Counted from the first letter of the stretch, positions 2,650 through 59,002 are shown. The stretch: DNA of 64,000 nucleotides from an uncultured Gemmatimonas sp. (GCA_964634395.1 CAZWJE010000004.1:24733-88732), one strand, 5' to 3'. Made by a program: numbers and translations. The notes: generated from the letters alone by a model not told the origin.

Positions 2650-3111
2650 ATGAAACGCGAATGGCACCATTCCGCGGGTGTGATCGTTTTCCGTGACGAG
2701 TCGCCCCGGTCGTATCTGCTCATGCGCTCGGCGGTCACCAAGCGCCCCGTGTGGGAGTTCCCGAAGGGCGCCCTCGAAACGGGCGAAACCGAAATCGAGG
2801 CGGCCGCACGCGAACTCGAAGAGGAAACGGGGCTCGGCTCGGGAGACTATACCCTTCTCGACGGTTTCCACGAAGAGGAGTGGTACTACTTCACGCGTCG
2901 ATCGGGTGACGACGTTCGCCTCATTCGCAAACGGGTCGCCTATTTCCTCGCCGAATGGCGCAGCGGAGAGGTCCAGGTCTCGCGGGAAGCATCGCGCCAT
3001 GAGTGGGCCGATGCCGAGACCGCCTTACGCATGATCAGATTCCCCGAGAAACGGCGGATCCTCGCCCGGGCCGAGGAATGGCTCACCCAGCGGGAAGGTC
3101 AACCGGGCTGA
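2650..3111 (+). CDS. NUDIX hydrolase
   Basis: Nudix box [23 protein letters not shown] (GX5EX7REUXEEXGU). Confidence 0.8.
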
Positions 3112-4439
3112 CCGCGCCGGTCGGAGTGGCCGGTCGCGATCGCCCGGACTTCCGCCGCGGCGATCGCGTCGCCAGCGTCCCACTCGGGCAGGCGGATCAC
3201 GAACTGGCTTCCGCCACCCAGGCGGCTCTGTACCTCGATCCGTCCCCCATGCCGCTCGGCGAGCAGCCGAGCGATCGCCAGGCCCAGGCCCGTTCCGCCC
3301 GACTGGCCGCGCGCCGCGTCGCCCCGGTAGAATCGGTCGAACACGCGCGCGAGCTCTTCGGGGGCGATCCCCACGCCGGTGTCGACCACGCGGACTTCCA
3401 CCCACCCCTGATGGTTCGCGTCGACCGTGCGTTTCGCGGTCAGCGTGACTGAACCTTCCGGTGTGAACTTGACGGCGTTCGACACCAGGTTCAGGAATAT
3501 CTGCCGGAGCTGGCCGGCGTGGCCCGCGACGACGAGCCGTTCGGAGGAGCGCAACTCGACGCGCAGATCCTTCCCCGCCGCCAGCATCTGCCCCATCTCC
3601 ACCACGTCCTCGAGCAGCGGAGTGATCTCGACGGCGTCGCGAGGCGTCGCCTGCCGGTCCTCCTCGCTTCGCGCGAGGGTGAGCAGGCCATCGACCAGGT
3701 GAAGCATCCACTCCGTTTCCTCGTTGACGTCCGCGAGGGTTTCACGGAGCTCGTCGGCCGTACGTTCCCGGGAGAGGGCGACCTGAACGCTCCCCTGGAT
3801 CGAGGTCAACGGGGTTCGCAGTTCGTGGCTGGCGTCCGCCGTGAAGCGACGAAGGGCTTCGACGGCGTGCTCGAGACGCATAAGCATGCCGTTCACCGAA
3901 TGCGCCAGGTCGCGCAGGTCCGAAGGGGCTCGCGGTTCCGGTACGCGACGGGAGAGCCCGCCAATCCCGATCTCGCGCGTGGTTTCCACGAGCCGGCGGA
4001 GTGGGTCGAGCAGGCGCTCGAGAAGCACGCCCCCGCCGAGCGCGGCGGCACCCGCGGTGAGGGGGATGAGCAAGAGGGAGATGATCAGGAACGACCGGAG
4101 CGCCCGGCCTTCCACATCGCCCGCCGGGGTTACCGCGACCGTGAAGACCTCGTTCGTCGCGAGCACCGTCTGCCGACGGAGTGATCGGACCGACTCACCT
4201 TGCGCGTTCTGATAGGTGACGAACTCCTCGGCGGTTTCCAGTCGTGGGATCCGCGGCGGGATGGCGACGTTCTCGACCGCCTGCGCCGTCTGGCGGAGCG
4301 ATTCCTCTTCGGCGGCCGCCAGCGTCCGCGAGAGGAGGAAGTAGGCGGCGGTCGCGAAGAGGCCCAGCGCCACGACCAGCACCAGCGAGTACCAGACGAG
4401 GATCTCGCGCCGGAGCGAAACACCCGAGGCGCGGTTCAT
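3099..4439 (-). CDS. Sensor histidine kinase (2 TM, HAMP, HisKA, HATPase_c)
   Basis: H-box [12 protein letters not shown], the N/G1/G2 boxes ([25 protein letters not shown]), and an N-terminal TM segment. It overlaps the response-regulator gene by 4 bp. Confidence 0.85.
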
Positions 4440-8194: not shown

Positions 8195-9448
8195 ATGGAA
8201 TCCATCACGCCGCGCGTCGCGCGGCTCGCGCTCGCGGGCATCGTCCTGGCGAGCGTGGCGGGGTGCGGCGAGGACGTAGTCGGCCCGAAGGCCGACGTCA
8301 CTATCTGCACGACGAGCATCACGTCGGCCAACGCCGACACCTTCGTGGAGCTCTGCTCGCTCACGAATCCGGTTCGCCACGTACGGATCGACAATCTCAG
8401 CGCGCCGGCGACCCATGCGTTCTCGCAGATCGTGTTCGGCTTCCGTACACCGCCGGAGGCGACGCAGGGTCCTCTCGGCGCGGGTCAGTACAGGGTGCTC
8501 TTCTATGGAGGCGGAGTTCCCGCGCCGCCCGCTCTGGTGGATCTGACGTACGGTTCCGCGTCCGAGACGCTGGCGGGGCCGGCGGCGTTCATCAACGCGG
8601 GCGCGACGGTGTGTTTCGATCTGCATGACGGGAGCGCGACGGCCGCGCCGGCGTTCGTGCTCTGGGTCTCGGGGGAGCGCGGCGCGAACTGCGCCGACCG
8701 GAGCACGCTGACCGCGGCGACGGCGTTCGGAGTTCGGGCGGATTGGGACGGGCTGACGGGCGCGATCGACAAGCAGGCACACACCTATTTCAGGCAGTCG
8801 GTCGTGTCCGGGACGGGGCCGTCGATCACCCTCTCGGATGAGGCCGTGCTCAGCGCTGAGCAGATCGCGAGCGCGACGGCGTGCACGACCGCCTGGAGCG
8901 CGAACACCGACTGGCAGCGGCTCTGCGCTCCGGCGACCGGGACCGTCCGCCACGTGCGGCTCGAAGGGGTCGAGGCGACGGCGAACAACAGCTATTTCTA
9001 CGCGATCCTCGGGCAGGACCCCGATCCGACGGGCAACCCGGCGGCCTCGGCCGGCAAACTGATCGTCACGGGTGGCCGTTCGCACTCGGGGACGTCCTGG
9101 ACGTGGTTCCGCTTCGGTGGCGGTAGCACGACGCAGTTCAGCTATGAGGGAGACGGCGGCGCCGGGCTCTACGTCGACGGTCCGACCACGATCTGTTTCG
9201 ATCTGGGGACGGCCTCGGGTGGGCGTGCCCGGTTCGTCTTCTGGGCGACAGGCGCCAACCAGGCCGACTGCGCCGACCGTTCGACGCTCACGCTCGAACG
9301 CGCGCTCTATGACAGTTCGACGGACCCCTCGACCGCGGATATCTGGGACGCGGCGTACGTGACGGGCAAGCTCAACTTCGTGAAGACGAACACCACGAAC
9401 GTCGGGGTGGGGAACGTGGTCGTTTCTTCGGAAGCGGCGGTGCTCTGA
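8195..9448 (+). CDS. Lipoprotein with an internally duplicated domain (hypothetical)
   Basis: Lipobox LASVAGC. Two homologous halves: NPVRHVRIDNLSA...TVCFDLHDGSATAAPAFVLWVSGERGANCADRSTLT versus GTVRHVRLEGVEA...TICFDLGTASGGRARFVFWATGANQADCADRSTLT. The stop overlaps the next start (TGATG). Confidence 0.6.
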   Translation: MESITPRVARLALAGIVLASVAGCGEDVVGPKADVTICTTSITSANADTFVELCSLTNPVRHVRIDNLSAPATHAFSQIVFGFRTPPEATQGPLGAGQYRVLFYGGGVPAPPALVDLTYGSASETLAGPAAFINAGATVCFDLHDGSATAAPAFVLWVSGERGANCADRSTLTAATAFGVRADWDGLTGAIDKQAHTYFRQSVVSGTGPSITLSDEAVLSAEQIASATACTTAWSANTDWQRLCAPATGTVRHVRLEGVEATANNSYFYAILGQDPDPTGNPAASAGKLIVTGGRSHSGTSWTWFRFGGGSTTQFSYEGDGGAGLYVDGPTTICFDLGTASGGRARFVFWATGANQADCADRSTLTLERALYDSSTDPSTADIWDAAYVTGKLNFVKTNTTNVGVGNVVVSSEAAVL

Positions 9449-10101
9449 TGGGCGTCGAGAGCAATCGGGAAGACGGTCGACGGAGGTCAGGGGGAACGAC
9501 CGCGCGAGATCGACGAAGATTCTCGCGGTGGACCGCGATTCTCTGCCTGGCCGCGGCGCCGATCGTCGCGGCGGGTTGCTCGGACAGCGCCACGGGGCCG
9601 GAAAGGGACGACGCGCCGCCGACCTTCACGGTTGACGCTTCCAAGGATACGATCTACATCGCCCTTGGAAGCTCACCCCGGACGCTGTCCGTCGTCGATC
9701 CGGCGACGTCGACCGATTGGGATCTGGCGATCTTCGCCACGGAGATCACGGCGAACGGCGGTGAAGCGGGGCCGGGCGGAGTGACGGTTCACTGTGTCTG
9801 CCAGAACGCCGGCGCGACCGATGCGCGGATCACCGCGATGACGGCCGAGTCGGAGTTGCCGGCGTTCGCCGCCTTCACGGCCGCCGGCATTCCGCCGGCG
9901 GGAGCGGCCTGGAGCCCGACGGCGATCGTCGACAATCCGTGGTACTGGTACGATTTCGATGCCCACTTCATCTACTCTACGTTCAACGTATACCTGTTGA
10001 AGCGCGGATCCACGGTATACAAGCTTCAGTTTACCGGATATTACGGGCCGAGCGGTCAATCGCGGATAGTCCAGTTCCGCTATGAAACATTGGTGAACTG
10101 A
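9448..10101 (+). CDS. Lipoprotein, possibly HmuY-like (putative haem/iron-binding), translationally coupled to TBDR
   Basis: Lipobox VAAGC. ~200 aa, placed directly upstream of a TonB-dependent receptor with overlapping stop/start codons at both ends. The HmuY-like call rests on size and context only. Confidence 0.4.
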   Translation: MGVESNREDGRRRSGGTTARDRRRFSRWTAILCLAAAPIVAAGCSDSATGPERDDAPPTFTVDASKDTIYIALGSSPRTLSVVDPATSTDWDLAIFATEITANGGEAGPGGVTVHCVCQNAGATDARITAMTAESELPAFAAFTAAGIPPAGAAWSPTAIVDNPWYWYDFDAHFIYSTFNVYLLKRGSTVYKLQFTGYYGPSGQSRIVQFRYETLVN

Positions 10102-12305
10102 TGGACCGTGCACCGAGAACACCGGCGGTCCGCCGGAACGCGGTCGACCCGTGCGTCGAGGGTGGAGCTCGGACCGGCCGGAGGCGGTCCTCCCGAGGAC
10201 GGAGCGTCGTCATCCTGGCGCTGGCCCTGGCGGCCGGCATGGTGACATCCGCGCCGGCGCTTGCGCGCCAGGGCGCGGCCCTCTCCGGCCGGGTGGTGGA
10301 CGCGAGTACGGGCGCGCCGGTGCGGGGTGCCGTCGTGGTGCTCGAGGGTGCATCGGAAGGAGGACAGGTCACCGACGACGAGGGTCGCTGGCGTCTTTCC
10401 GCGGTGACTTCGGGGGCGGCGACGGTGCTCGTGTCACATATCGGCTACGCGCCCTGGCGTGGCACAGTCACGGGTGCCGACCAGACGATCCGCCTGACCC
10501 CCCGTGTCGTCGCGCTCGATGAGGTGGTGATCACGGCCGCGCGGCGGTTGCAGCGGCTCGCGGACGTGGCCATCGCCACCGAAGTGATCTCTCGTCGGGA
10601 GATCGAACACTCCGGCACCTCCGATCTTTCCCGCGTGCTGATCGAACGCCTCGGTATCCAGGTGGAAGGCGGGGTCGGCTCGGGCGAGGGCGTCATGATC
10701 CAGGGTCTGGGTTCGCAACGCGTGCTGATCCTCCTCGACGGCCAGCCCGTGGTCGGCCGGGTCGACGGGATGCTGGACGTTTCCCGGCTCCCGGTTTCCT
10801 CCGTCGAGCGCATCGAAGTGATGAAGGGGCCTCAGTCCTCGCTGTACGGGACCGACGCGATTGGCGGCGTGGTGAACATCGTGACGCGCGGGCTCGATGG
10901 TCCTCGCTGGCGAGGCGGAGTGGAATTGACGGCCGGCACCGAAGGACGGCTGGACGGGACTGTTTCCCTCGGGGGCAGCCGCGACGAAGTGGGTTATCTG
11001 GTCACCCTGGGTCGACGGGCGACGGATCTCACGCCCGGTCGCTCAGCGACCGCGGGTGCTCTGGCGGAACGCTGGGATGGAATGTTGAAGGCCGACTGGC
11101 GAGCGTCGCCGTCGGTGACGGTGCACGCGAGCGGTCTCTGGGTCGATGACCTGCAACGCTGGCGGACAGGGCCCCTGTACAACTTTTCCGAGGGCGACCA
11201 GTGGATGGGCCGACTCGGCGCCGATGTGACGATCGGCGAAACCCGACTCGCGCCGACGCTCTATTTTTCGGAGTTCGCCCGCCTCTACCGTCAGTCCATC
11301 ACTCCCGACCCCGTCGCGGATTCCGGCAACCACGAACTCCAGCGACTGATCGAGGGAGAACTTCTCTACAACGGGACCGTTCAGGGACTGGCCGTGGATG
11401 GTGGCGTTGAGGGTCGTCGTGAGTATATCGAGTCGGAGCGGATCCTGACGCACGAGCGCGCGCTGCATACGCTGGAACCGTTCGCGCAGGTGACGATCGG
11501 TGGCGACCGGCTTCAACTGGTTCCCGGCGCACGGCTCGTGTGGAGCGAGCAGTGGGGAACGCATTTCACGCCCCGGCTGGCCGCGTTCTATCGTCCGGTG
11601 GAGTCCGTGGCGATCCGGGCGGCGGCGGGTCTGGGATACCGGGCGCCGGACTTCAAGGAACTAGGGATGTCGTTCCTGAACGTCGGTGCCGGAATCGGCT
11701 ACGAAGTGCGCGGAAACCCGAACCTCCTGCCGGAGAACTCGGAGAATCTCACGCTCAGCGTCGAATGGGGTGGCGCCACCCGCTATCTGCGGGTGCAGGG
11801 GTTCCACAACCAGTTCGATGATTTCATCCAGAACGTGCTCGCCGGCGATTCCGCCGGCCTTCAGATCTACAGCTACGGAAACGTCGAGCGCGGGTACACT
11901 CGTGGGCTGGAGACGGAGGTGGGGCTCACCCATGGTGGCCTGAGAGTGGAGGGCGGCTACTCCTGGTTGCGCGCGCATGACCGCGATCTCGACCGGCCGC
12001 TTCTGGGACGGCCCGCGCGTTCGGGGCGGCTGATGGTGGAACATCCGCTGCCACTGTCGAGCCGTCTGGCGTTCACGGCGAGTTACACCGGCACCACCCC
12101 CATGGAACACGGAGAGACCGGGGATCGGTATCGCCCGGCTTTCACGCGGTTGGACCTGCGCCTCTCGAGCACTCTACCGCGGGGAGTCCGGATATCGGCG
12201 GGCGTCCACAACCTCCTCGACGAGGTTCCCGAGGAATGGCCGGGCTACGGCCGTCGGCAGCTGTACCTGGGTCTCAACTGGAGTCTGCCCGAGGGCGCCT
12301 TCTGA
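10101..12305 (+). CDS. TonB-dependent receptor with N-terminal carboxypeptidase-regulatory-like domain
   Basis: Signal peptide, then GRVVDASTGAPVRGAVVVLEG (CarbopepD_reg-like), then a plug region (DEVVITAAR...SGTSDLSRVL, IEVMKGPQSSLYGTDAIGGVVNIVTR) and a long beta-barrel ending in an aromatic residue. Confidence 0.85.
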   Translation: MDRAPRTPAVRRNAVDPCVEGGARTGRRRSSRGRSVVILALALAAGMVTSAPALARQGAALSGRVVDASTGAPVRGAVVVLEGASEGGQVTDDEGRWRLSAVTSGAATVLVSHIGYAPWRGTVTGADQTIRLTPRVVALDEVVITAARRLQRLADVAIATEVISRREIEHSGTSDLSRVLIERLGIQVEGGVGSGEGVMIQGLGSQRVLILLDGQPVVGRVDGMLDVSRLPVSSVERIEVMKGPQSSLYGTDAIGGVVNIVTRGLDGPRWRGGVELTAGTEGRLDGTVSLGGSRDEVGYLVTLGRRATDLTPGRSATAGALAERWDGMLKADWRASPSVTVHASGLWVDDLQRWRTGPLYNFSEGDQWMGRLGADVTIGETRLAPTLYFSEFARLYRQSITPDPVADSGNHELQRLIEGELLYNGTVQGLAVDGGVEGRREYIESERILTHERALHTLEPFAQVTIGGDRLQLVPGARLVWSEQWGTHFTPRLAAFYRPVESVAIRAAAGLGYRAPDFKELGMSFLNVGAGIGYEVRGNPNLLPENSENLTLSVEWGGATRYLRVQGFHNQFDDFIQNVLAGDSAGLQIYSYGNVERGYTRGLETEVGLTHGGLRVEGGYSWLRAHDRDLDRPLLGRPARSGRLMVEHPLPLSSRLAFTASYTGTTPMEHGETGDRYRPAFTRLDLRLSSTLPRGVRISAGVHNLLDEVPEEWPGYGRRQLYLGLNWSLPEGAF

Positions 12306-12342
12306 CGGAGGGGGGAGGCGGCGCGGCCCCCCTCTTCGTCCC

Positions 12343-12483
12343 TCAGTGATCCGAACAGCCGCACGATGACCCACAGCCGTTCTCCCGGCTGGATCGCGCG
12401 GCTTTCACCTTTCGGGCCAGGTCGACGCCGAGGTAACACACGGCACCCACGATGATCGTCGCGACGGCCAACGTCTCGAACAT
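12343..12483 (-). CDS. FeoB-associated Cys-rich membrane protein (46 aa)
   Basis: MFETLAVATIIVGAVCYLGVDLARKVKAARSSRENGCGSSCGCSDH. RBS AAGGGGA is 7 nt upstream. It sits immediately downstream of feoB. The 105-aa ORF in the track is an upstream extension. Confidence 0.6.
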   Translation of the reverse strand: MFETLAVATIIVGAVCYLGVDLARKVKAARSSRENGCGSSCGCSDH

Positions 12484-12503
12484 GATTGGTTCCCCTTTCG
12501 TGG

Positions 12504-14681
12504 TCAGCCCGCGAAGCCCAGGAAGAGACCGCCGCGGTAGACCACGAAAGCGGCGACGTAGGCCAGGACGAACATCCACAGAAACTGAAACACCGCCCAC
12601 TTCGCGCCGGTCCATCCACCGCCCGTTTCCCGCACGACGACGGCGTTCGTGCTCACGCACATCATCGCGAACACATAGAAGACCATCAGCGCGACCGCGA
12701 TCAACGGCGTATAGGCGGGAGCGCCGTCCGGTCCGACCTCCTGGACGAGCCTTTCCCGCAGCGCGACCGAGGTCTCATCGGCCTCATTGCCCACGCCATA
12801 GATGGTGCCCATCGTGGCGACGAACACCTCACGCGCGGCGAACGAGCTGATGATCGAGACGCCGATCTTCCAATCGAACCCGAGCGGGGCCACGACAGGC
12901 TCCACGGCGTGACCCGCCCGACCCAGGAAGCTGCCGGCGAGCTGCGCCTCCTGAGCGAGTTCAGGTGTCAACGTCGCCGACGAATCGAGCCGGGGATAGG
13001 TCGCGAGCGCCCATAGCACGATCGTCAGGGCGAAGATGATCGTGCCCGCGCGCCGCAGAAAGATCCCCGCGCGCTGCATCACCGCGAGCGCGAGACTCCG
13101 AGGATTCGGAAAACGGTAGGGTGGCAGTTCCATGATCATCGGCTGCGAAGGCCCCTTCAAGAGCGTCTTCTTGAAGATCCCCGCGATCACGAGCGCCGCC
13201 GCCGTCCCGAGGAAATACATCGTCAGCAGGGTGAGTCCCCGCAGATTGAAGAAACCGGCCACCGTCGTCGCCGGAATGAATGTGCCGATCAACAACGTGT
13301 ACACGGGAAGGCGCGCCGAGCAGCTCATCAGCGGCACGACCATGATCGTCGCCAGCCGGTCCTGCGGGTTGTCGATCGTTCGCGCGGCCATGATCCCCGG
13401 AACGGCGCACGCGTATCCCGAAAGCATCGGGATGAAGCTCCGTCCATGCAGCCCGACGCCCCTCATGAAGCGATCCATGATGAACGCCGCCCGCGCCATG
13501 TAGCCCGTCGCCTCCAGAATCCCGATGAAGGCGAAAAGGATGACGATCTGCGGAAGGAAGACGACGACGGATCCGACACCCGCGATCACGCCGTCAACGA
13601 GGAGACTGCGCAGCTGGCCCTCGGGGAGCGTCGCTCTGACCGCGCTCGCGACGCCTCCGATCAACCCTTCCACGCCGGTCATGAGCGGCTCGGCCCAGGT
13701 GAAGATCGACTGGAATACGACCGCCATCAGCGCGAGGAAGATGAGCGGCCCGAAGACGCGATGGAGAAGGATCGCGTCGACCCGGTCGGTGAGCGTCTTC
13801 CCTCCGCCTCCGATGCGGTGCACGGTCTCGTCCATGACCTCCGCGATCCAGCCATAGCGGAGCTCCGCCTCCACCGCCCGCGTGTGGTACCCCTCGCCGC
13901 GAAGGGCCTCACGCGCTCGCTCCACCACCTCCTCCAGACCCTTCACCCCGCCCAGATGCCGGGACGGGGCGACTGACAGGAGCCGCAGCGCTTCCATCCC
14001 CGCCGCCGGTCCGGTGATCCCGCCACGGGCGAGCACTTCCTCCACCGGAGCGAGCGCTCGCGCGATCGCCTCCGGCAGGGCGAATCGTCGCGCCGGCGCG
14101 GGCAGCCCAGGCGCTCGTTCAATCGCGCGACGGAGCACGTCGATCCCCGTTCCGCGGGTAGCCACGGTGGCGACGACCTGCGCGCCCAGCCGCATCGCCA
14201 GCTCCACCGCGTCGATCCGCACGCCCGCCGTCTCCGCCGCGTCGACCTGGTTCAGCGCCACCACCACCGGCAGCCCCAGCTCCAGCACCTGACTGGTCAG
14301 GAAGAGGTTGCGCTCCAGATTCGACGCGTCGACCACCAGGACCACGACATCCGGCGCCGGCATGGACGGCGTCAGGCCCAGCAGAACCTCCAGCGCGATC
14401 TCCTCGTCCGGCGAGGTCGCCGACAGGCTGTACGCGCCGGGCAGGTCGAGCACGGAGACGTCCACGCCGCTCTCGCTCCGATACCGACCCTCGATCCGCT
14501 CCACGGTCACGCCCGCGTAGTTGCCCACTCGCTGGCGCATTCCCGTAAGCGCGTTGAACAGAGTGCTCTTTCCCGTGTTCGGATTGCCGATGAGGGCGAT
14601 CCGCATGGTTCGCGAAGCGTCGGGTGACGCGGATCGGGACGGGCCGACGGGGCCGGTCGTGGCGACGCCAGGGGCGGCCAT
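12504..14681 (-). CDS. feoB: Ferrous iron transporter B
   Basis: G-protein domain IALIGNPNTGKSTLFNALTG followed by a polytopic membrane domain. AAGGA sits 7 nt upstream of the ATG at 14681. Confidence 0.9.
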   Translation of the reverse strand: MAAPGVATTGPVGPSRSASPDASRTMRIALIGNPNTGKSTLFNALTGMRQRVGNYAGVTVERIEGRYRSESGVDVSVLDLPGAYSLSATSPDEEIALEVLLGLTPSMPAPDVVVLVVDASNLERNLFLTSQVLELGLPVVVALNQVDAAETAGVRIDAVELAMRLGAQVVATVATRGTGIDVLRRAIERAPGLPAPARRFALPEAIARALAPVEEVLARGGITGPAAGMEALRLLSVAPSRHLGGVKGLEEVVERAREALRGEGYHTRAVEAELRYGWIAEVMDETVHRIGGGGKTLTDRVDAILLHRVFGPLIFLALMAVVFQSIFTWAEPLMTGVEGLIGGVASAVRATLPEGQLRSLLVDGVIAGVGSVVVFLPQIVILFAFIGILEATGYMARAAFIMDRFMRGVGLHGRSFIPMLSGYACAVPGIMAARTIDNPQDRLATIMVVPLMSCSARLPVYTLLIGTFIPATTVAGFFNLRGLTLLTMYFLGTAAALVIAGIFKKTLLKGPSQPMIMELPPYRFPNPRSLALAVMQRAGIFLRRAGTIIFALTIVLWALATYPRLDSSATLTPELAQEAQLAGSFLGRAGHAVEPVVAPLGFDWKIGVSIISSFAAREVFVATMGTIYGVGNEADETSVALRERLVQEVGPDGAPAYTPLIAVALMVFYVFAMMCVSTNAVVVRETGGGWTGAKWAVFQFLWMFVLAYVAAFVVYRGGLFLGFAG

Positions 14682-14783
14682 CAGGTGGTCCTTCGCGGCA
14701 TGCCGATTCCGGCGCGGGGATGTGTGGAGGTGACGGGATCACCGATCATGGCGGGACGGGGATGGGGAAGACAAAGTCGGTTG

Positions 14784-14800
14784 AGAATGAATTTCATCCA
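14784..14800. promoter_or_regulatory. AGAATGA-ATT-TCATCCA operator-like palindrome ~100 bp upstream of feoB
   Basis: cggTTGAGAATGAATTTCATccaatcataaattt. It shares TTGAGAATGA[A/G]TTTCAT with the 8116 site and lies in a 320-bp feoA-feoB gap. Confidence 0.35.
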
Positions 14801-15003
14801 ATCATAAATTTCGCGGGCCGACTTCACAAGCGGGAGGCCTGGTTGACGCCCGCCGATCGCGCGTCCCGGGTCACGGCGCGGTCGGTGCCTCGCGGATGGC
14901 GTTGACGCGGTGTCGGGTAGGGAAGGAGAGGCCGTTCCGGGCGGCCCCCCGGGGGGCGCGACGCTGGCGCGGACGGGGGAGGGGGGACGGACGTCGCCCG
15001 GAT

Positions 15004-15243
15004 TCAGCGCAACAGCACCTGCTCGGCTTCCGCGCGACGAAGCGTGAGCATGAAGCCGCGGAGGGTGATCTCGATCGGGTCGCCGAGCGGAGCGACCCGG
15101 ATCATGCGGATCGACGTGCCGCGGATCAGCCCGAGGTCCATCAATCGACTCGTGACCGAAGATTCGCCGAGCACCGATACGATCGTGCCCGTTTCGCCGG
15201 GGCGGAGTTCCAGGAGTGTTCTGGGCATCGAGGGAGAACTCAA
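15004..15243 (-). CDS. feoA: Ferrous iron transport protein A
   Basis: FeoA SH3-like domain: LRPGETGTIVSVLGESSVTSRLMDLGLIRGTSIRMIRVAPLGDPIEITLRGFMLTLRRAEAEQVLL. Confidence 0.75.
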   Translation of the reverse strand: MSSPSMPRTLLELRPGETGTIVSVLGESSVTSRLMDLGLIRGTSIRMIRVAPLGDPIEITLRGFMLTLRRAEAEQVLLR

Positions 15244-15527
15244 CCGTCGAGGGGAAGGACCGTGATCGCGTTCGCCAGCGCGGCCCCAAGGGCCAGACGG
15301 GAGCCGGCGACCTCGAGCAGGAGCCCACTCCGCCGATCGACGACGATCACGCAGCTGCCTTCAAAGAGCCCGAGGTTCCGTAGCCGGCTGGCCTCCCGTT
15401 CCTCACACTCCATCCGGAGTACCGCGGCGCGACATCCGGACGCGCATTCCGCGAGGGGACACCCCGCGCGCGACCCGGCCGCGGGCGTCGGTATCGAGGC
15501 GCGGGATTTCCACCAGGAGAGCGCCAT
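15240..15527 (-). CDS. Second FeoA-domain protein
   Basis: LAECASGCRAAVLRMECEEREASRLRNLGLFEGSCVIVVDRRSGLLLEVAGSRLALGAALANAITVLPL. The ATG at 15525-15527 is chosen as start; a GTG at 15602 is an alternative. Confidence 0.55.
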   Translation of the reverse strand: MALSWWKSRASIPTPAAGSRAGCPLAECASGCRAAVLRMECEEREASRLRNLGLFEGSCVIVVDRRSGLLLEVAGSRLALGAALANAITVLPLDG

Positions 15528-15927
15528 GTCGAGGTACGAGCGGGAGACGCGGATGATGAGAACGATTCTCAGCGAATGATGGTGGTGGCGACCCGAAAAC
15601 ACAAGTGTCGGGGGCGGGAAGACCGGGGGGTTGGCGGGCTCCTTCGTCGGGTCGCGAAGAGCTTGGGATCATTGACTTTTCGCGTTCCTGACCGTAGAGT
15701 TCGAGCAGTTCGGGGCGCGGCGGGAAGTCCCATTTTTGAGCCAACAGTTTTGAAGCCGGGGCCAACTTTAACGGTAGACGTCACGCCCCCTCGGGGAAGG
15801 CGGAAACTGCTGGGAAGCCACCATCCGTATCGTACAGGCTTCAGAAATCCTTGCCGGCGCGCCCTACGCCCGGGTCGGTCTCTCGCGGGAGGCCGGCCCT
15901 TTTTTTCATCGTCATGAGGGGGAGGTC

Positions 15928-16344
15928 GTGATGCCAACGGTGCGCGTCACGCGGCGACTCCATTTCTCGGCGGCGCACCGGCTGAACAGCGACCGCCTCT
16001 CGCCCGAAGAGAACACCGCGTTCTACGGACTATGCAACAGCCCGAACTATCACGGTCACAACTATGAACTCGAGGTGACCGTCGAGGGGCGGATCGACCC
16101 GGATACCGGGTACGTGATGGATCTGGGCAGGCTGAAGGCGATCGCGGAGGAGGTGGTGATCACGGATCTCGATCACCGGAACCTCAACCTGGACGTGGAG
16201 TGGCTGGAGGGGGTGATCCCGTCCGCCGAGAACCTGGTCGTGCGCATCTGGGAACGGCTCGCGGGACGGATCCCCGGTGGGCGCCTGGTTAAACTCATCC
16301 TCTGGGAGACGCCGCGAAATTACGCGGAATATACGGGAGACTGA
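15928..16344 (+). CDS. 6-pyruvoyl-tetrahydropterin synthase family (PTPS/QueD-like)
   Basis: Cys-x-x-x-HGH motif ([15 protein letters not shown]) and the catalytic-His region. Confidence 0.8.
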
Positions 16345-16349
16345 CAGAC

Positions 16350-16964
16350 ATGAGTGGAGTCGCGACCGAGGGGAGAAGTGGCGCCGTCGATGGCGGGAGT
16401 CCGTCATTCATGGCGCTCGTCGCGGAACAGATACGCCAGTTGGGTGAGGATCCGGCGCGACCGGGGCTGATCCGCACGCCGGAGCGCGTGGAGAAGAGTC
16501 TGCGCTGGTTGACGCGCGGGTACGAGATGTCCGTCCATGAAGTCGTGGGGAACGCGATCTTCGACGAGGATCACCACAACCTGGTGATGGTGAAGGACAT
16601 CGAGATGTATTCGCTGTGCGAGCATCATCTGCTGCCTTTCTTCGGAAAGGTGCACATCGGGTACATTCCGAACGGCAGAATCGTCGGGTTGAGCAAGTTG
16701 CCGCGGGTGGTGGAGGTCTTCGCGCGACGTCTGCAGGTTCAGGAACGATTGACGGAGCAGATCGCGGGTGCCCTGATGGACGTCCTCGACCCGCAGGGAG
16801 TGGCGGTCGTCGTCGAGGCGGCGCACCTCTGCATGATGATGCGTGGCGTGGAGAAGCAGAACTCGAAGACGATCACCAGCGCCATGCGGGGCGTGTTCAT
16901 GGAGGACCTCGGGACCCGGGAGGAGTTTCTTCGGCTCTGCATGGTCCACAGCGTGATGGGATGA
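16350..16964 (+). CDS. folE: GTP cyclohydrolase I
   Basis: [18 protein letters not shown]...[15 protein letters not shown], typical of FolE type I. Confidence 0.9.
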
Positions 16965-17683
16965 ACGTACGAGCATTGGCGGGCCGGGTCGCTTTCGTGA
17001 CCGGCGCGTCGAAGGGGATCGGACGGGCGATCGCGACCGCGCTCGCGGACGCCGGGGCGACCGTGGTGGTTACCGCTCGTTCGACGGATGCGCTCGAGGC
17101 GGTTGCCCGGGAGATCGGTGGACACGCGATCCCGGCGGACGTCGGGTCGGTCGAGGATGTGGAATCACTCCCCTTTCGCGTGGCGGAAGTCGCCGGCGCG
17201 GCTCCGGACATCCTGGTGAACGCCGCCGGCGCCTTCGCGCTATCACCCTTCGCCGACACGGATCCCGTCGTCTTCGAGCGCCTGGTCCGCGTCAACCTCA
17301 TGGGGCCGTTCCTCGTCATACGCGGTTTCCTCGGGACGATGATCGAGCGCGGCGCGGGGCACATCGTCACCATCGGATCGGTCGCCGGCCGGCATCCGCT
17401 CGCGGGGAACGCCGCGTACTCCGCGTCCAAGTTCGGGTTGCGAGGCATGCATGAGGTGCTCGCCCTGGAACTGCGAGGGACCGGGGTCAGGGCTGCGCTG
17501 ATCGAGCCCGCCGCGACGGACACGTCCCTCTGGGATCCGTTCAACCCCGATGCCCGCGCCGACCTGCCCTCCCGCGACCGGATGTTGCGGCCGGAGGAGG
17601 TCGCCTCCGCGATCCGTTTCGTCCTCGAACAGCCCCCGGGCGTCGAGGTCAGTGACCTGGCTATCCGGGCGGCGAGAGGGTAG
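16961..17683 (+). CDS. SDR-family oxidoreductase
   Basis: Starts at the ATG overlapping the folE stop (ATGA). [16 protein letters not shown] (TGxxxGxG), NAAG, and YSASK (YxxxK). The 355-aa ORF in the track is an out-of-context upstream extension. Confidence 0.8.
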
Positions 17684-17756
17684 TTGCCGCCGAGCCGCCG
17701 CCAGCGACATTTTTCCGGTTCCCTGGATCGGACCGACCAACATCGAGCGCTAACGC

Positions 17757-18137
17757 ATGTTCATCATCAATGTGAAGTCGCATTACGACGCCGCGCACTT
17801 CATTCGGGAGTACAACGGGAAGTGCGAGAACCTCCACGGCCACCGCTATGAAGTCGAGGTGGCGCTCGCGTTCGACGACGTGGGGACCGGAGGCATGGCC
17901 TATGACTTCACGGAGGCGAAGCGACATCTGCGGGCCATCACCGACGAACTCGACCATCAGAACCTGAATGACCTCCCGGCGTTCGCGGAGATCGAAACGA
18001 GTTCCGAGAACCAGGCGCGCCACATCTTCATGGAGATGAAGAAGCGTCTCGATGACGTCGGTGAGAACCTCCTCTACGTGAGAGTCTGGGAGACACCGAA
18101 CCAGTGGGCGCAGTACTCCGAGCGCCTGATCTTCTGA
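17757..18137 (+). CDS. Second 6-pyruvoyl-tetrahydropterin synthase family protein (PTPS/QueD paralog)
   Basis: CENLHGHRYEVEV motif, 126 aa. Confidence 0.75.
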   Translation: MFIINVKSHYDAAHFIREYNGKCENLHGHRYEVEVALAFDDVGTGGMAYDFTEAKRHLRAITDELDHQNLNDLPAFAEIETSSENQARHIFMEMKKRLDDVGENLLYVRVWETPNQWAQYSERLIF

Positions 18138-18140
18138 CGG

Positions 18141-18797
18141 TTGCACATTCTTCTGACGGACATCGTGGCGTGCCCGCGGTGCGGGCCGGAGCATGGCCTC
18201 ATCGTTCTCGCCGATCGGCTCGAAGATCGCCGCGTGGCGAGTGGCATGCTGGGATGCGCCAACTGCCGGACGAGCTACTCGATCGAGGATGGGGTGGTCG
18301 ACCTTCGGGTCGACACCGGCGACCCGCTTCCGCTCACCGGCGGAACGGCGGAGTCCGATCCCGATCCCGATTACGCGTTGCGCGTGGCCGCGTTGCTGGG
18401 CGTCCAGCCGCCGGGCGCCTGGGTCGGAGTCATCGAAGCTGACGGCGCGGTCTCGCCCGCCGTCTCGAGACTCCTCACGGAGGCGCGTTTCATTTCCATT
18501 ACCCCCGGTCCGCCCGGGGCCGCGCAAGCGAACGATCGTGACGGCGACGAAGGGGTGAGTCGGGTGATCGCGGGCGGCCGGCTTCCCTTTCGCCCGTGGG
18601 TGTTACGGGCCGCGGCGGTGCTCGGAAGACCGGGTCCGGAACTCCTGGCGGGGCTGGAGCGGACGCTCGCTCCGGGGGGGCGGTTGGTCGTGGAGGGCGG
18701 TGGTGAGCGGATCGCCGAAACCCTCGGTGAACTGGGCTTCACCGTCCATTTGCGGCAGGGCGAAACGGTGGTTGCGGCCGCTTCGGGGCCCCGGTAA
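18141..18797 (+). CDS. Trm112-like zinc-finger domain protein (hypothetical)
   Basis: N-terminal CPRCG...CANC four-Cys motif. The remainder is unrecognised. Confidence 0.45.
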   Translation: MHILLTDIVACPRCGPEHGLIVLADRLEDRRVASGMLGCANCRTSYSIEDGVVDLRVDTGDPLPLTGGTAESDPDPDYALRVAALLGVQPPGAWVGVIEADGAVSPAVSRLLTEARFISITPGPPGAAQANDRDGDEGVSRVIAGGRLPFRPWVLRAAAVLGRPGPELLAGLERTLAPGGRLVVEGGGERIAETLGELGFTVHLRQGETVVAAASGPR

Positions 18798-22647: not shown

Positions 22648-23706
22648 GTGGACTTCGCGTTGACCCAACCGCAACGGCCCGAAATCACGACACCCGAGGA
22701 ACTCGTCGAGGACCAGGGCGCCGAGTTGAGCCTGCGCCCGTCGCGCCTGAGCGAGTTCATCGGGCAGCCGAAGGTGAAGGAGTCGCTGCAGATCGCGATC
22801 GACGCGGCGGTGATCCGTCGTGAGCCGCTCGACCACACACTGCTCTACGGTCCGCCCGGTCTGGGGAAGACGACACTCTCGATGCTGATGGCGCGAGAGA
22901 TGGGGACGAGTGTGCGGACCACCTCGGGCCCCGTGCTGGAGAAGCCGGGCGATCTCGTCCGCGAGCTGACTTCGCTGCGGGATGGCGATATCCTCTTCAT
23001 CGACGAGATCCATCGCCTTCGGCCGATCATCGAGGAGTTCCTCTATCCGGCGATGGAGGACTACCGAATCGACGTCCGCCTGTCCGACGGGCCGCAGGCG
23101 CAGATGATCACCATGCCGATCGAGCGTTTCACCCTCGTCGGGGCGACGACACGGTTCGGGCTGCTCACGCCGCCGATGCGCGCTCGCTTCGGAATCGTGC
23201 AGCGCCTCGATTACTATCCGGTCGAACAGATCGCGGTCATCGTCGAGCGGTCGGCGGAAATCCTGGGTGTCAGGATCACCAGTAAAGGGGCCACCGAGAT
23301 CGCTCGTCGAGCGCGCGGCACTCCCCGGGTGGCGAACCGTTTCCTCCGCCGGGTCCGTGACTACGCCGAGGTGCGCGCCGACGGCGTGATCACGCCTCAG
23401 GTCGCCGACGCGGCGCTCAGGATGCTGGAGGTCGACGAGTTCGGGCTCGACGATATGGATGCGCGGGTTCTGCGCGCGATCATCGAGCGATTCGATGGCG
23501 GACCCGTGGGCCTCAACACGCTCGCCGTCTCGATCGGCGAGGATCCCGGGACGCTCGAGGAAGTTTACGAACCCTTTCTCATCCAGAACGGACTGCTGAT
23601 GCGCACGCCGCGTGGCAGGGTCGCCACCCCGCTCGCGTATCGCCGATTCGGCCTCATCGCGCCAGATCGCGACACCCCCGGCCAGGGAACGTTCTTCGCC
23701 CCGTGA
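22648..23706 (+). CDS. ruvB: Holliday junction ATP-dependent helicase RuvB
   Basis: [12 protein letters not shown]...[13 protein letters not shown] (Walker A)...DEIHRL (Walker B). Confidence 0.9.
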
Positions 23707-23722
23707 CCTCGTCGCGAGCCGC

Positions 23723-24772
23723 ATGACCTCTTCGCGCGGTCGTCTTACTTCCGACTACGAGTTCGACCTTCCGGCGGACCGCATTGCCTCGGAGCCCACG
23801 GACCGACGGGAAGAAAGCCGCCTCCTCGTCGTCGATCGCGTGAGCGACGTCCTCGACCACCGTCATTTCGTCGATCTCGTGGAACTGGTTTCCCCGGGAG
23901 ACGTGATGGTGGTGAACGAGACCCGCGTCTTCCCCGCGCGCCTCCGGGGCGTCCGTCGGGGCGGTGGCGCGGCCGAAATCCTGCTCCTGCATGCCGACCC
24001 GGCCGACCCCGCACTCTGGACCGCGCTCGTCAGGCCGGGCGCGAAACTGCGCCCCGGACGAACCGTCGAGATCGGGGATCGTCTGAGCGTCGAGATCGTG
24101 GACACGACGCCGGACGGCGAGCGCCTCGTCCGCCTGGTCACCGATCTCGCTCCGACGGCGGCCGTGGAGGAATATGGCCAGATCCCGTTGCCACCCTATA
24201 TCCGCAGGGTGGCGACCGCCGCGGACCGCGAGCGGTACCAGACGGTATACGCCCGCGATCCCGGCTCGGTCGCGGCGCCCACCGCCGGCCTGCACTTCAC
24301 GCCGGAACTCATCACGCGCCTGCGCGATCGCGGTGTCGCCTTCGCGCCGCTGGTCCTTCATGTGGGAGTGGGTACATTCCGGCCCGTGGAGGTCGAGGAC
24401 CCCTCGGAACACCGGATGCACCGGGAGTGGTACCGTGTTCCGACGGATTCGGCCGCCACGATCAACACCGCGCGAGCGGCGGGCGGCGCGGTCTGGGCCG
24501 TCGGAACGACCTCGGTGCGAACGCTGGAGAGTGTGGCCGATCCAGAGGGCGTCGTCCGGGCGGGTGAGGGCTGGACCGGGATCTTCATCCGGCCACCCTA
24601 TACGTTTCGGGCCGTGGATCACCTCATCACCAACTTCCATCTTCCCCGGTCCACACTCCTCATGCTCGTCGCGGCCTTCGCCGGCTACGACCGCGCGATG
24701 CGCGTGTACGACGAGGCTATCCGTCGTGACTACCGCTTCTATTCCTACGGTGACGCGATGGCGTTGCTCTGA
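23723..24772 (+). CDS. queA: S-adenosylmethionine:tRNA ribosyltransferase-isomerase
   Basis: SDYEFDLPADRIASEP...SRLLVV...VVNETRVFPARL matches the QueA N-terminus. Start chosen at the internal ATG after the ruvB stop. Confidence 0.85.
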   Translation: MTSSRGRLTSDYEFDLPADRIASEPTDRREESRLLVVDRVSDVLDHRHFVDLVELVSPGDVMVVNETRVFPARLRGVRRGGGAAEILLLHADPADPALWTALVRPGAKLRPGRTVEIGDRLSVEIVDTTPDGERLVRLVTDLAPTAAVEEYGQIPLPPYIRRVATAADRERYQTVYARDPGSVAAPTAGLHFTPELITRLRDRGVAFAPLVLHVGVGTFRPVEVEDPSEHRMHREWYRVPTDSAATINTARAAGGAVWAVGTTSVRTLESVADPEGVVRAGEGWTGIFIRPPYTFRAVDHLITNFHLPRSTLLMLVAAFAGYDRAMRVYDEAIRRDYRFYSYGDAMALL

Positions 24773-24870: not shown

Positions 24871-26073
<1,203 letters not shown>

Positions 26074-49970: not shown

Positions 49971-50049
49971 GTATCCTCCCCGCGTTCAGCCGGCCGTGGA
50001 AGAACGGGCCGGGCCGACGCCGCGCGATGGCCTTCAGGAAGGATTCGAC

Positions 50050-50535
50050 ATGTCGCCCTACATTCAGCTCTTCCGTCGCTACCTTCGGGAGCAGGGACTA
50101 CCGGTGACACCCCAGCGCGAGGCGGTCGCGGATGTCATCTTCAACTCACAGGGCCACCTCTCGGTCGAGGACATCGAGAAAGCGCTGCGCAGTACCGGCG
50201 AGCGGATCGGCAAGGCGACGATCTATCGGACGCTCGAGATTCTCGTACGCAGCGGCCTCGTCGAAGAGCACGACTTCGGTGAGGGCTTCAAGCGCTACGA
50301 GCATCTCTTCGGACAGACTCCGGTCCACGAACACCTGATCTGTGTCAACTGTCACGAGGTGGTGGAGTTCCAGAGCCCGGAAGCGGTGCGGGTCCAGGAG
50401 CTTACCGCTCGGGCTCATGGATTCATTCCCGTCCGCCACCGGCTGGATGTCTATGGTCTCTGCGGCAACTGCCAGGCGGAGGGCGTCGTGCTGCCCGACG
50501 AAGGGTTGACCTGTCCGGTCGAACTCCTGGCGTAG
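50050..50535 (+). CDS. fur: Ferric uptake regulator family protein
   Basis: LREQGLPVTPQREAVADVIF...HLSVEDIE...IGKATIYRTLEILV (wHTH), metal sites HEHLICVNCHEV and CGNC. GGAAGGA sits 8 nt upstream of the ATG. Confidence 0.85.
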   Translation: MSPYIQLFRRYLREQGLPVTPQREAVADVIFNSQGHLSVEDIEKALRSTGERIGKATIYRTLEILVRSGLVEEHDFGEGFKRYEHLFGQTPVHEHLICVNCHEVVEFQSPEAVRVQELTARAHGFIPVRHRLDVYGLCGNCQAEGVVLPDEGLTCPVELLA

Positions 50536-57588: not shown

Positions 57589-58161
57589 GTGCCCGGCAGC
57601 GAGTACGAAAAGGTTGTTGAGCTGGCGGCGGATCAGTACGGCTACGTCACAACCTCGCAGGCCCGAGAGGGCGGCGTCAGACCCGACACCCTCAGAAAGA
57701 TGGCCGGACGAGGAACCCTCGAACGGGCGAGTCGAGGGCTCTACCGAGTCCCAACCTTCCCGCATTCACCGTACGCCGAATACATGGAGGCTAGTCTCTG
57801 GCCGGCAGGGATCCGTGGCATTATTTCGCATCAATCAGCCTTGGCGCTCCGTGAGCTCTCGGACGTCAGTCCCTCCGCGGTTCACATCACCATACCGGCC
57901 GACTTCCGGATCCGTCGGGACGTGCCCGCCCATCTCGTTATCCATCACGCGAGGCTCACGGACGAGGACGTTACGCTCTTCGAGGGAATCCCGTGCACGA
58001 CCGTAGCACGAACCATTGAGGACTGTCACCGCGCTCACATGGGCACCGCTCTCCTCCGCCAGGCGATCGAGGATGCGAAACGAGAGGGCTTCTTGAGCCC
58101 CACCAAAGCTACCGAGCTCAGTAAGCGGGTCCTCACGGCAGGTGTGAGCAGCGGTGAATAG
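57589..58161 (+). CDS. abiEi: AbiEi-type antitoxin / transcriptional regulator (type IV TA, abortive infection)
   Basis: GTG start with AGGAGG SD. N-terminal wHTH-like (VVELAADQYGYVTTSQAREGGVRPDTLRKMAGRGTLERASRGLYR) and a C-terminal domain. Overlaps the toxin start by 8 bp. Confidence 0.55.
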   Translation: MPGSEYEKVVELAADQYGYVTTSQAREGGVRPDTLRKMAGRGTLERASRGLYRVPTFPHSPYAEYMEASLWPAGIRGIISHQSALALRELSDVSPSAVHITIPADFRIRRDVPAHLVIHHARLTDEDVTLFEGIPCTTVARTIEDCHRAHMGTALLRQAIEDAKREGFLSPTKATELSKRVLTAGVSSGE

Positions 58162-59002
58162 GCGGCGGAATCCACCTCCTTCAGTTCGCCTTCTCACGCA
58201 ATGGGTGGATGCGTATGCCCGTGAGCGAGGGCTTCCCCGCAGGCGAGTCCGGGACTGGATCTCCTACATGATCCTCGGAGGCCGGCTCGAGCGCGCGAGT
58301 TCTGCCGCCGAGGGGCCCCGATTCACGATCAAGGGAGCAGTCGCCCTCGAGATGCGACTTCCCGCAAAGGCAAGGGCCACCAGGGACATCGATCTGGTCG
58401 TCGACGATCTCGGGAGCGCCGATCTAACCGCCGCCTTGCGGAACGCGCTCGAAGGCAGCTATCAGGGCTTCTCCTTCCGACTGAAGGGTGAGCCTCATGT
58501 CATGCCGAACGAATCCGTACGTGTTCAGGTCGCTCTGGACTACAGGGGCCGGAGCTGGGGCACGGTCCAAGTGGATCTTTCCCCTGGTGAAGGGGACGGG
58601 ACCGAGATCGAAATGGTGGAGCCACTTGGACTCGATCCGTTTGGGCTGAATACGCCTGTCGTCCTGCCCTGCATCTCGTTGCGCTATCACATCGCGCAGA
58701 AGATTCACGCGATGACATCGCCTCCTCTCGACAAGGCGACGCCGAACGAGCGCTTTCGAGACCTCGTTGATCTTCTCCTCATGCGGGAAATCACCACCGA
58801 TCTGAGTGGTGTGCGAAGGGCCTGTGTGGATGTGTTCGCTGTCCGCAAGAAACATCGATGGCCGCCGGTGCTCGAGCCGCCCGCGTTCTGGGAAGAGCCA
58901 TTCGCGTCGCTCGCCGAGGAAGTCGAGCTTCCCGTGCGCAGCCTCGAAGATGCCGTACGCGAAGCCCGATCCTTCATCGAAGATGTCGAGGGGGCCGAGT
59001 AG
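58154..59002 (+). CDS. abiEii: AbiEii/AbiGii-family nucleotidyltransferase toxin (DUF1814-like)
   Basis: Nucleotidyltransferase signature: G(x)...TRDIDLVVDD, a second acidic motif (VQVDLSPGEG), and a C-terminal helical region. Confidence 0.6.
   Translation: MNRRRNPPPSVRLLTQWVDAYARERGLPRRRVRDWISYMILGGRLERASSAAEGPRFTIKGAVALEMRLPAKARATRDIDLVVDDLGSADLTAALRNALEGSYQGFSFRLKGEPHVMPNESVRVQVALDYRGRSWGTVQVDLSPGEGDGTEIEMVEPLGLDPFGLNTPVVLPCISLRYHIAQKIHAMTSPPLDKATPNERFRDLVDLLLMREITTDLSGVRRACVDVFAVRKKHRWPPVLEPPAFWEEPFASLAEEVELPVRSLEDAVREARSFIEDVEGAE

Follow-up and report, generated by a model that had tools for sequence, protein, structure and literature searches.

The 64,000-nucleotide stretch from an uncultured Gemmatimonas sp. 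analysed here (GCA_964634395.1, CAZWJE010000004.1:24733-88732; called the window below, with positions counted from its first letter) carries, at 15928-18137, four closely spaced open reading frames (ORFs) on the plus strand that encode a first member of the 6-pyruvoyl-tetrahydropterin synthase (PTPS) family (copy 1), GTP cyclohydrolase I (FolE), a short-chain dehydrogenase/reductase (SDR) and a second PTPS-family protein (copy 2). We consider it probable that this operon combines a tetrahydrobiopterin (BH4)-type module with a QueD-type branch, the two sharing one FolE. In the proposed pathway, FolE would convert GTP to 7,8-dihydroneopterin triphosphate (H2NTP), from which copy 1, as a PTPS-II enzyme, would form 6-pyruvoyl-tetrahydropterin; the SDR, with NADPH, would then reduce the two side-chain carbonyls to give a BH4-type pterin of no assignable stereochemistry. 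Copy 2 would draw on the same H2NTP pool to make 6-carboxy-tetrahydropterin for preQ0 and queuosine, and may also make 6-hydroxymethyl-dihydropterin for folate, bypassing FolB. An earlier note on this DNA had suggested the three-step BH4 route for the locus, with one PTPS copy possibly acting as QueD or PTPS-III, and this interpretation proves largely right.

Organization of the locus

The four genes named in the earlier note were all recovered as plus-strand ORFs: copy 1 at 15928-16344 (138 residues; Pfam PF01242, E=2.9e-33), folE at 16350-16964, the SDR gene at 16961-17683 (Pfam adh_short, E=1.4e-47) and copy 2 at 17757-18137 (126 residues; PF01242, E=8e-39). Read directly from the sequence, the gap between copy 1 and folE is 5 nt and that between the SDR gene and copy 2 is 73 nt, while folE and the SDR gene share an ATGA overlap (GGATGAACG), which agrees with the coupling of these two genes described in the note. 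The true start of copy 1 is probably ATG at 15931 rather than GTG at 15928, because its orthologues begin with MPTVRV or MPRVRV. The G+C content of the window is ~67% overall, and the composition shows no break at the pterin locus. Named homologues of the three query proteins belong to Gemmatimonadota, mostly Longimicrobiaceae, Longimicrobium and Gemmatimonas.

Copy 1 has the features of a PTPS-II enzyme

The PTPS subfamilies are told apart by signature motifs, with Cx5HGH marking PTPS-II, CxxxHGH marking PTPS-I/QueD and ExxHGH marking PTPS-III (PMC5041015). In copy 1 the motif is C-NSPNY-HGH, i.e. the PTPS-II signature Cx5HGH, and this was the only motif in 120/120 of its nearest homologues, CxxxHGH or ExxHGH occurring in 0/120. 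Copy 1 aligns over its full length, at 48% identity, with the rat (1b66, E=2.6e-37) and human (3i2b, E=3.6e-37) enzymes, and its residues H17, C36, H42, H44, D82, H83 and E127 fall in columns that are invariant with rat, human and C. elegans PTPS. In the rat enzyme the zinc ligands are His23, His48 and His50, the triad is Cys42-Asp88-His89 and the pterin-anchoring residue is Glu133. The alignment to the rat protein shows that the zinc-ligand His, Cys-Asp-His and Glu positions are all kept. By motif, catalytic residues and identity to the mammalian enzymes, copy 1 is predicted to be a PTPS-II. The note had described two CxxxHGH copies; this motif is present in copy 2 only (CENLHGH).

These features bear directly on a rival reading in which both PTPS copies are QueD isozymes and the locus serves 7-deazaguanine and queuosine synthesis only. 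Such a reading draws on the NCBI naming of orthologues of both copies as '6-carboxytetrahydropterin synthase' and on the presence of queA and tgt nearby, but it is disfavoured and hardly tenable: copy 1 has Cx5HGH without CxxxHGH, shares 48% identity with mammalian PTPS and scores only 67.7 bits on the QueD model TIGR03367 against a cut-off of 89.25, and among the gene neighbours of its orthologues are relatives of the sepiapterin reductase from Chlorobium tepidum (CtSR) and, in Ignavibacterium, also a phenylalanine hydroxylase. For the PTPS copies, the outcome that the note named as refuting its reading, with both in the QueD clade, is not borne out, as copy 1 carries the other motif and stays below the QueD cut-off. 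The NCBI records for copy 1 orthologues that bear the QueD name (e.g. P0122, P0146 and P0177) look wrongly labelled, because the copy 1 family has Cx5HGH and copy 1 is 48% identical to the mammalian enzymes.

FolE and the conserved gene order

The assignment of the second gene as GTP cyclohydrolase I, made in the note, holds above both NCBIfam equivalog cut-offs: the protein scores 248.2 bits on TIGR00063 (cut-off 181.6) and 259 bits on NF006825 (cut-off 174), and matches Pfam PF01227 with E=6e-74. Its translation contains the CEHH and HLC zinc-site motifs, as in the zinc-dependent type IA enzymes.

Scanning a genome collection with a PTPS-II alignment gave 80 loci, in which genes were mapped by tblastn. 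The counts given here cover the loci with at least 2.6 kb of downstream sequence, 37 from Gemmatimonadota and 26 from other phyla, the latter comprising Rhodothermales/Salinibacter, Ignavibacteria/Melioribacter, other Bacteroidota, Opitutaceae/Verrucomicrobia and Nitrospinota. Among the 37 Gemmatimonadota loci, FolE follows PTPS-II in 32 and the SDR follows in 34, while copy 2 is present in 8 and a Trm112-like gene in 31; the corresponding counts for the 26 loci of other phyla are 20, 18, 0 and 0. The triad of PTPS-II, FolE and SDR was recovered in Rhodothermales/Salinibacter, Ignavibacteria/Melioribacter and other Bacteroidota as well as at one Opitutaceae locus. Wherever SDR orthologues lie on long contigs, the order is always PTPS, FolE, SDR, PTPS. 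The four-gene arrangement is far beyond chance, its order being repeated in dozens of independent genomes.

Clustering of PTPS-II, FolE and sepiapterin reductase has been described before and was used for assigning the function of bacterial PTPS-II (PMC5041015), and a neighbourhood-network study independently links PTPS-II to FolE (PMC5445326). The unusual character that the earlier note implied for the locus is not upheld, since clustering of this kind is already in the literature. Clusters of this type belong to the SEED 'PTPS paralogs' subsystem, and Rhodothermus marinus is cited (Fig. 3 legend, PMC5041015) for PTPS genes in more than one conserved context.

In Ignavibacterium, two genes upstream of the triad, whose SDR is here a CtSR relative, stands a gene for phenylalanine 4-monooxygenase (289 bits, cut-off 247). 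At least one lineage thus has the triad physically linked with a pterin-dependent hydroxylase. The hydroxylase genes are at 3065-3931 of locus L063, ~3199-3861 of L047 and ~3176-3844 of L054, and two peroxiredoxin genes stand between the hydroxylase gene and PTPS-II.

The SDR encoded after folE

The SDR, which NCBI records label only 'SDR family oxidoreductase', is a classical one with the tetrad Asn-Ser-Tyr-Lys and, for NADP, a basic residue. Its T14-G21 segment (TGxxxGxG) and residues R40, N112, S140, Y153 and K157 are invariant among 44 orthologues. For comparison with known sepiapterin reductases we used a CtSR query identical to PDB chain 2bd0 and a human SPR query that had been checked against the PDB. 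In the 18 loci of other phyla that have an SDR in this slot, CtSR was the best match in 16, at 31-40% identity.

Two residues of CtSR, Trp-196 and Phe-99, have been reported to be essential for binding the substrate (PMC7520308). Trp191 of the window SDR aligns with Trp-196, and an equivalent tryptophan is present in 61/61 SDRs of the first slot after FolE and 119/120 database homologues, compared with 0/7 outgroup SDRs and 0/6 SDRs of a second slot. Together, gene context and this one signature residue lead us to propose that the SDR is a sepiapterin-reductase equivalent, although clear orthology does not enter into the proposal. For the BH4 route put forward in the earlier note this means that the PTPS-II, the FolE and the conserved triad stand, whereas the identity of the SDR comes from its context and the single residue.

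The second-slot SDRs follow the Trp-bearing SDR in Ignavibacteria, Melioribacter and Bacteroidota (L055, 6681-7391; L061, 6674-7384; L067, 6674-7384; L071, 6729-7430; L079, 6723-7433; L078, 4877-5593). They form their own clade with 100% bootstrap and have no equivalent of Trp-196. A FolM/PTR1-type identity of the window SDR was also considered and set aside: no model of that type is among its 25 best NCBIfam matches and its TGxxxGIG motif is classical, the protein having been judged without a direct FolM comparison.

The second PTPS copy combines two signatures

The motif of copy 2, CENLHGH, is of the form CExxHGH and so contains both CxxxHGH and ExxHGH; the same form is found in 120/120 of its nearest homologues. 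Hybrids of this kind are reported to take part in queuosine as well as folate synthesis (Phillips et al. 2012, as summarized in PMC5041015). On the QueD model TIGR03367 copy 2 reaches 89.8 bits, which is above the cut-off. The suggestion in the note that one of the PTPS proteins may be QueD or PTPS-III is supported by copy 2 in both respects, since it carries the two signatures and passes the QueD cut-off. We classify it as a PTPS-I/III hybrid type, predicted to act as QueD, in line with the presence of queA and tgt in the window, and because the PTPS-III glutamate is also present, a role in folate synthesis is possible.

At one Gemmatimonas locus (L085, 4671-6396), a transposase gene of insertion-sequence type (DDE_Tnp_ISAZ013) lies directly upstream of copy 2. 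PTPS-II, FolE and SDR are missing there, and copy 2, the Trm112-like gene, TPR and CutA are retained.

Evidence against the shared-FolE pathway and alternative readings

A number of observations weigh against the proposed combination of a BH4-type module with a QueD-type branch, and most of them concern the SDR. In BLASTP it has 30% identity to CtSR (103 bits) and 25% to human SPR (49 bits), and by sequence it does not belong to the mammalian SPR group. In a phmmer search of the PDB, the generic SDRs 3rkr, 2jah and 2ehd score higher (117, 116 and 110 bits); the 60 best matches, which reach down to 81.6 bits, do not include 2bd0. With the AlphaFold model of the SDR (mean predicted local distance difference test score, pLDDT, 96) as Foldseek query, 2bd0 ranked 15th among at least 2000 SDR chains; the model superposes on 2bd0 with a template-modelling (TM) score of 0.86 and a root-mean-square deviation of 2.2 Å, a TM level that is common to all SDRs and does not discriminate between them. 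Neighbour-joining places the cluster SDRs with CtSR and apart from seven outgroups, but with a bootstrap of only 3%, and the Gemmatimonadota SDRs form their own clade (92%). The second CtSR residue, Phe-99, aligns with Leu-94 of the window SDR, and an invariant Phe-92 stands two residues earlier, in a loop where the alignment is uncertain; the same placement of Phe-92 is seen in the Salinibacter-type SDRs. None of phmmer, BLASTP, the tree and Foldseek sets the SDR apart from generic SDRs, and sequence and fold neither establish nor exclude its orthology with known sepiapterin reductases. In the comparison with sepiapterin reductase that the earlier note had called for, the Trp-196 equivalent and the slot after FolE speak for the assignment, while the SDR is no closer to CtSR than generic SDRs are.

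The other points of this kind concern the pathway partners and copy 2. Neither the window nor the 5-kb surroundings of any Gemmatimonadota cluster yielded a pterin-dependent hydroxylase, a carbinolamine dehydratase or a pterin glycosyltransferase. Copy 2 exceeds the QueD cut-off by a margin of only 0.5 bit, and it belongs to the cluster at only 8 of the 37 Gemmatimonadota loci. QueC, QueE and QueF were found neither in Pfam scans of the window nor among the called genes around the copy 2 loci. Finally, a survey of the phylum described folate synthesis as complete in Gemmatimonadota genomes (PMC10581226), which argues mildly against an obligatory FolB bypass.

A first alternative makes the SDR a generic ketoreductase acting on a non-pterin substrate and linked to folE by synteny only, with PTPS-II working alone or with an unlinked aldo-keto reductase. 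No NCBIfam model reaches its cut-off with this protein, the best matches being generic SDR or FabG-like models; the nearest structures are clavulanate dehydrogenase and uncharacterized SDRs, and the CtSR clade has no bootstrap support. We nevertheless regard a generic ketoreductase as improbable: an SDR occupies the same slot after FolE in 34/37 Gemmatimonadota loci, CtSR relatives occupy it in four other lineages, the start of the SDR gene overlaps the folE stop, and the Trp-196 equivalent is universal in the slot-1 SDRs and missing from the outgroups. A sepiapterin-reductase-like function remains our preferred prediction for the SDR, and it is comparative context that carries it.

A second alternative changes the role of copy 2, which would mainly be a PTPS-III replacing FolB in folate synthesis, so that the operon would join biopterin and folate branches and QueD activity would be secondary or absent. 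The ExxHGH motif is invariant in the 120/120 homologues, CExxHGH hybrids have been reported active in both pathways (PMC5041015), and copy 2 is not beside queC or queE. Moreover, folB was not found in the 64-kb window by Pfam scans or by tblastn with approximate query sequences, a weak negative, and the window is silent on folB elsewhere in the genome. Against this, the Cys of CxxxHGH is equally invariant and the QueD equivalog cut-off is reached; neither the window nor the loci around copy 2 yielded a FolK or FolP family; the phylum survey reports complete folate synthesis; and copy 2 is missing from most Gemmatimonadota clusters. We judge a mainly folate-directed copy 2 to be unlikely, and favour the QueD-type branch with a possible additional folate role. 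Genes for folK, folP, queC, queE, the pterin-dependent hydroxylase and carbinolamine dehydratase were likewise not found in the window by Pfam or by tblastn with approximate queries, the latter again a weak negative; a hydroxylase turned up only in the Ignavibacterium loci.

A 6S-like RNA precedes the operon

Upstream of copy 1, a structured RNA at 15712-15866 and an intrinsic-terminator-like hairpin with a T7 tract at 15872-15906 lie on the plus strand, the latter identified by a terminator scan and by reading of the sequence. The hairpin, which has a 12 bp stem with 8 GC pairs, marks the end of the RNA gene and lies ~12 nt ahead of the ribosome-binding site of PTPS-II; related loci have a comparable GC-rich hairpin after the RNA. 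Conservation of the ~150 nt preceding the hairpin extends to more than 50 Gemmatimonadota loci, where they almost always adjoin PTPS-II; in the window, the protein gene upstream of the RNA is divergently oriented.

The best Rfam match of 15712-15866 was the 6S RNA family RF00013, over the full model length, with 20.9 bits and E=0.015, below the gathering score of 46.4. Among four members tested, 6S was the best or joint-best match in 4/4 (17-21 bits, E 0.014-0.11, all below 46.4), and the model was aligned over all or nearly all of its length in each, with the L009 match covering positions 14-173 of 187. Rfam found no 6S match when a longer stretch was searched, and the match appears with the short region alone. 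RNAalifold gives a consensus of 36 pairs without branch points, a rod with closing and terminal stems and a large internal loop at its centre; compensatory changes occur in 27 of the pairs. With a covariance model made from this alignment (CM R1), each of 53 Gemmatimonadota loci has one copy and the window a single match (130 bits); the model also aligns, weakly, with the whole annotated E. coli ssrS. We conclude that the upstream RNA is a predicted, divergent (ssrS-like) 6S RNA of the phylum.

The order of elements, i.e. a promoter-like site, ~150 nt of structured RNA, a strong terminator and a ribosome-binding site, together with the conservation and covariation that more than 50 loci show ahead of PTPS-II, would also suit a riboswitch or attenuator sensing pterin, folate or preQ1. 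However, 6S is the best or joint-best Rfam match in all four members, the rod with a central internal loop is as in 6S RNA, and there is exactly one copy per locus with none elsewhere in the window. The RNA is also separable from PTPS-II: a minus-strand gene lies between the two in L031 and L032, and in L008 the RNA is on the opposite strand. A regulatory element of this kind, already disfavoured, is very unlikely, and we rejected it on the 6S match, the rod fold and the loci in which RNA and PTPS-II are uncoupled. With a 6S RNA in this position almost no promoter space is left, and the pterin genes are therefore probably co-transcribed with the 6S RNA gene by read-through of its terminator.

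The Trm112-like gene and other surroundings

A further plus-strand gene at 18141-18797 (218 residues; Pfam Trm112p, E=3e-5) has a TTG start 3 nt past the copy 2 stop. In its product, a Trm112-like zinc ribbon at the N terminus is fused to a divergent methyltransferase-like domain of class I that lacks GxGxG. A profile of 32 orthologues matched the archaeal Trm112-like chain 6zxw_H with E=8e-11 and, weakly, the methyltransferases 3bus, MitM and RlmA (E=7e-4 to 0.02). In the 31 of 37 Gemmatimonadota loci that have it, the gene follows the SDR gene or copy 2, and it is present even where copy 2 is not. Examples of orthologues are at 7186-7812 of L003 and 6114-6794 of L018, and in L018 the start abuts the SDR stop; one subclade is without the first CPxC knuckle. 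The short contig L028 (DATLOH010000046.1), labelled Acidimicrobiales, carries a Gemmatimonadota-type 6S RNA, PTPS-II, SDR and Trm112-like gene, and is probably mis-binned.

Downstream of the operon and outside it, queA (23747-24772, plus strand; NF001140, 446 bits against a cut-off of 324) and tgt, encoding tRNA-guanine(34) transglycosylase (24895-26073, plus strand; TIGR00430, 488 bits against 306.75), were found ~5.5-8 kb away, in keeping with the ~6 kb given in the earlier note. The queA ORF as called (23612-24772) overlaps the end of ruvB, and ~45 codons at its 5′ end probably do not belong to the gene; we place the start near 23747 because residue 46 is the first one covered by the NCBIfam match.

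Type IA FolE and PTPS are zinc enzymes, and genes for metal uptake are repeated neighbours of the cluster. In L001 (1-4745) and L089 (1442-4027), genes for ZnuA, an ABC-3 permease and a Zip transporter flank the cluster, and in L001 the Zip gene comes after the 6S-like RNA. The flanking genes of the window itself (9448-15602 and 49996-50535) encode an HmuY-like protein, a TonB-dependent receptor, FeoB and two FeoA-like proteins, with a Fur-family regulator 32 kb away. An AbiEi antitoxin/AbiEii toxin pair (type IV toxin-antitoxin or abortive-infection) at 57589-59002 on the plus strand coincides with the stretch of lowest G+C content (0.62) and may be a small acquired island.

Implications

The locus is a known cluster type extended to Gemmatimonadota, not a new pathway, and it implies no new chemistry or mechanism. 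It predicts that a biopterin-type pterin is made by members of this phylum, which are common in soil and water and of which very few have been cultured; a literature search for Gemmatimonadetes together with biopterin returned nothing relevant. Within a single operon, one FolE apparently supplies two and possibly three pterin branches. In practice the locus is of use for annotation and for reconstructing pathways in metagenome-assembled genomes, where the names of the PTPS-II orthologues and of the SDR, and a 6S RNA below the Rfam gathering score, are the points of gain.

A more far-reaching idea, which we hold to be a long shot, is a lineage-specific modified biopterin in place of plain BH4, in which the phylum-specific SDR clade would set an unusual side-chain stereochemistry, the Trm112-like protein would modify, bind or channel the pterin, and co-transcription with 6S RNA would tie output to growth phase. 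If true, a phylum with few cultured members, and without a linked aromatic amino-acid hydroxylase, would have a new pathway to a pterin cofactor or pigment.

Comparison with known systems

Copy 1 has in common with the mammalian enzymes (rat 1b66 and human 3i2b) the Cx5HGH motif, the zinc-ligand His residues, the Cys-Asp-His triad and the Glu. It differs from them in being bacterial and operon-encoded, and in the residue before HGH: the mammalian sequence is PNGHGH, whereas copy 1 has PNYHGH, with Tyr, Trp or Phe replacing Gly among its homologues. Copy 2 matches the PTPS-I/III hybrids exactly in its CExxHGH motif, but it clusters with BH4-type genes and not with queCE or folKP.

The window SDR resembles CtSR, which makes L-threo-tetrahydrobiopterin, in being a classical NADP-type SDR of ~240 residues with Ser-Tyr-Lys and the tryptophan kept. 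It differs in its 30% identity and in having Leu-94 aligned with Phe-99, in the loop of uncertain alignment, and generic SDRs are equally or more similar to it.

The 6S RNA arrangement has a counterpart in the E. coli ssrS-fau locus (fau, also ygfA, encodes 5-formyl-tetrahydrofolate cyclo-ligase), where a 6S RNA likewise stands directly upstream of a pterin/folate gene in the same orientation with little promoter room. The downstream gene is fau there and PTPS-II with folE here, and the RNA described here scores only 17-21 bits on the Rfam 6S model.

Taken as a whole, the cluster shares with the known bacterial BH4-type clusters the same families in the same order, a Cx5HGH PTPS-II and a separate QueD-type paralog in the genome. 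It differs from them in that the Gemmatimonadota SDR forms its own clade, with 30% identity to CtSR as against 31-40% elsewhere, in that the QueD-type paralog lies inside the operon in one Gemmatimonadota subclade, and in that the Gemmatimonadota cluster is flanked by a Trm112-like gene and a 6S RNA gene.

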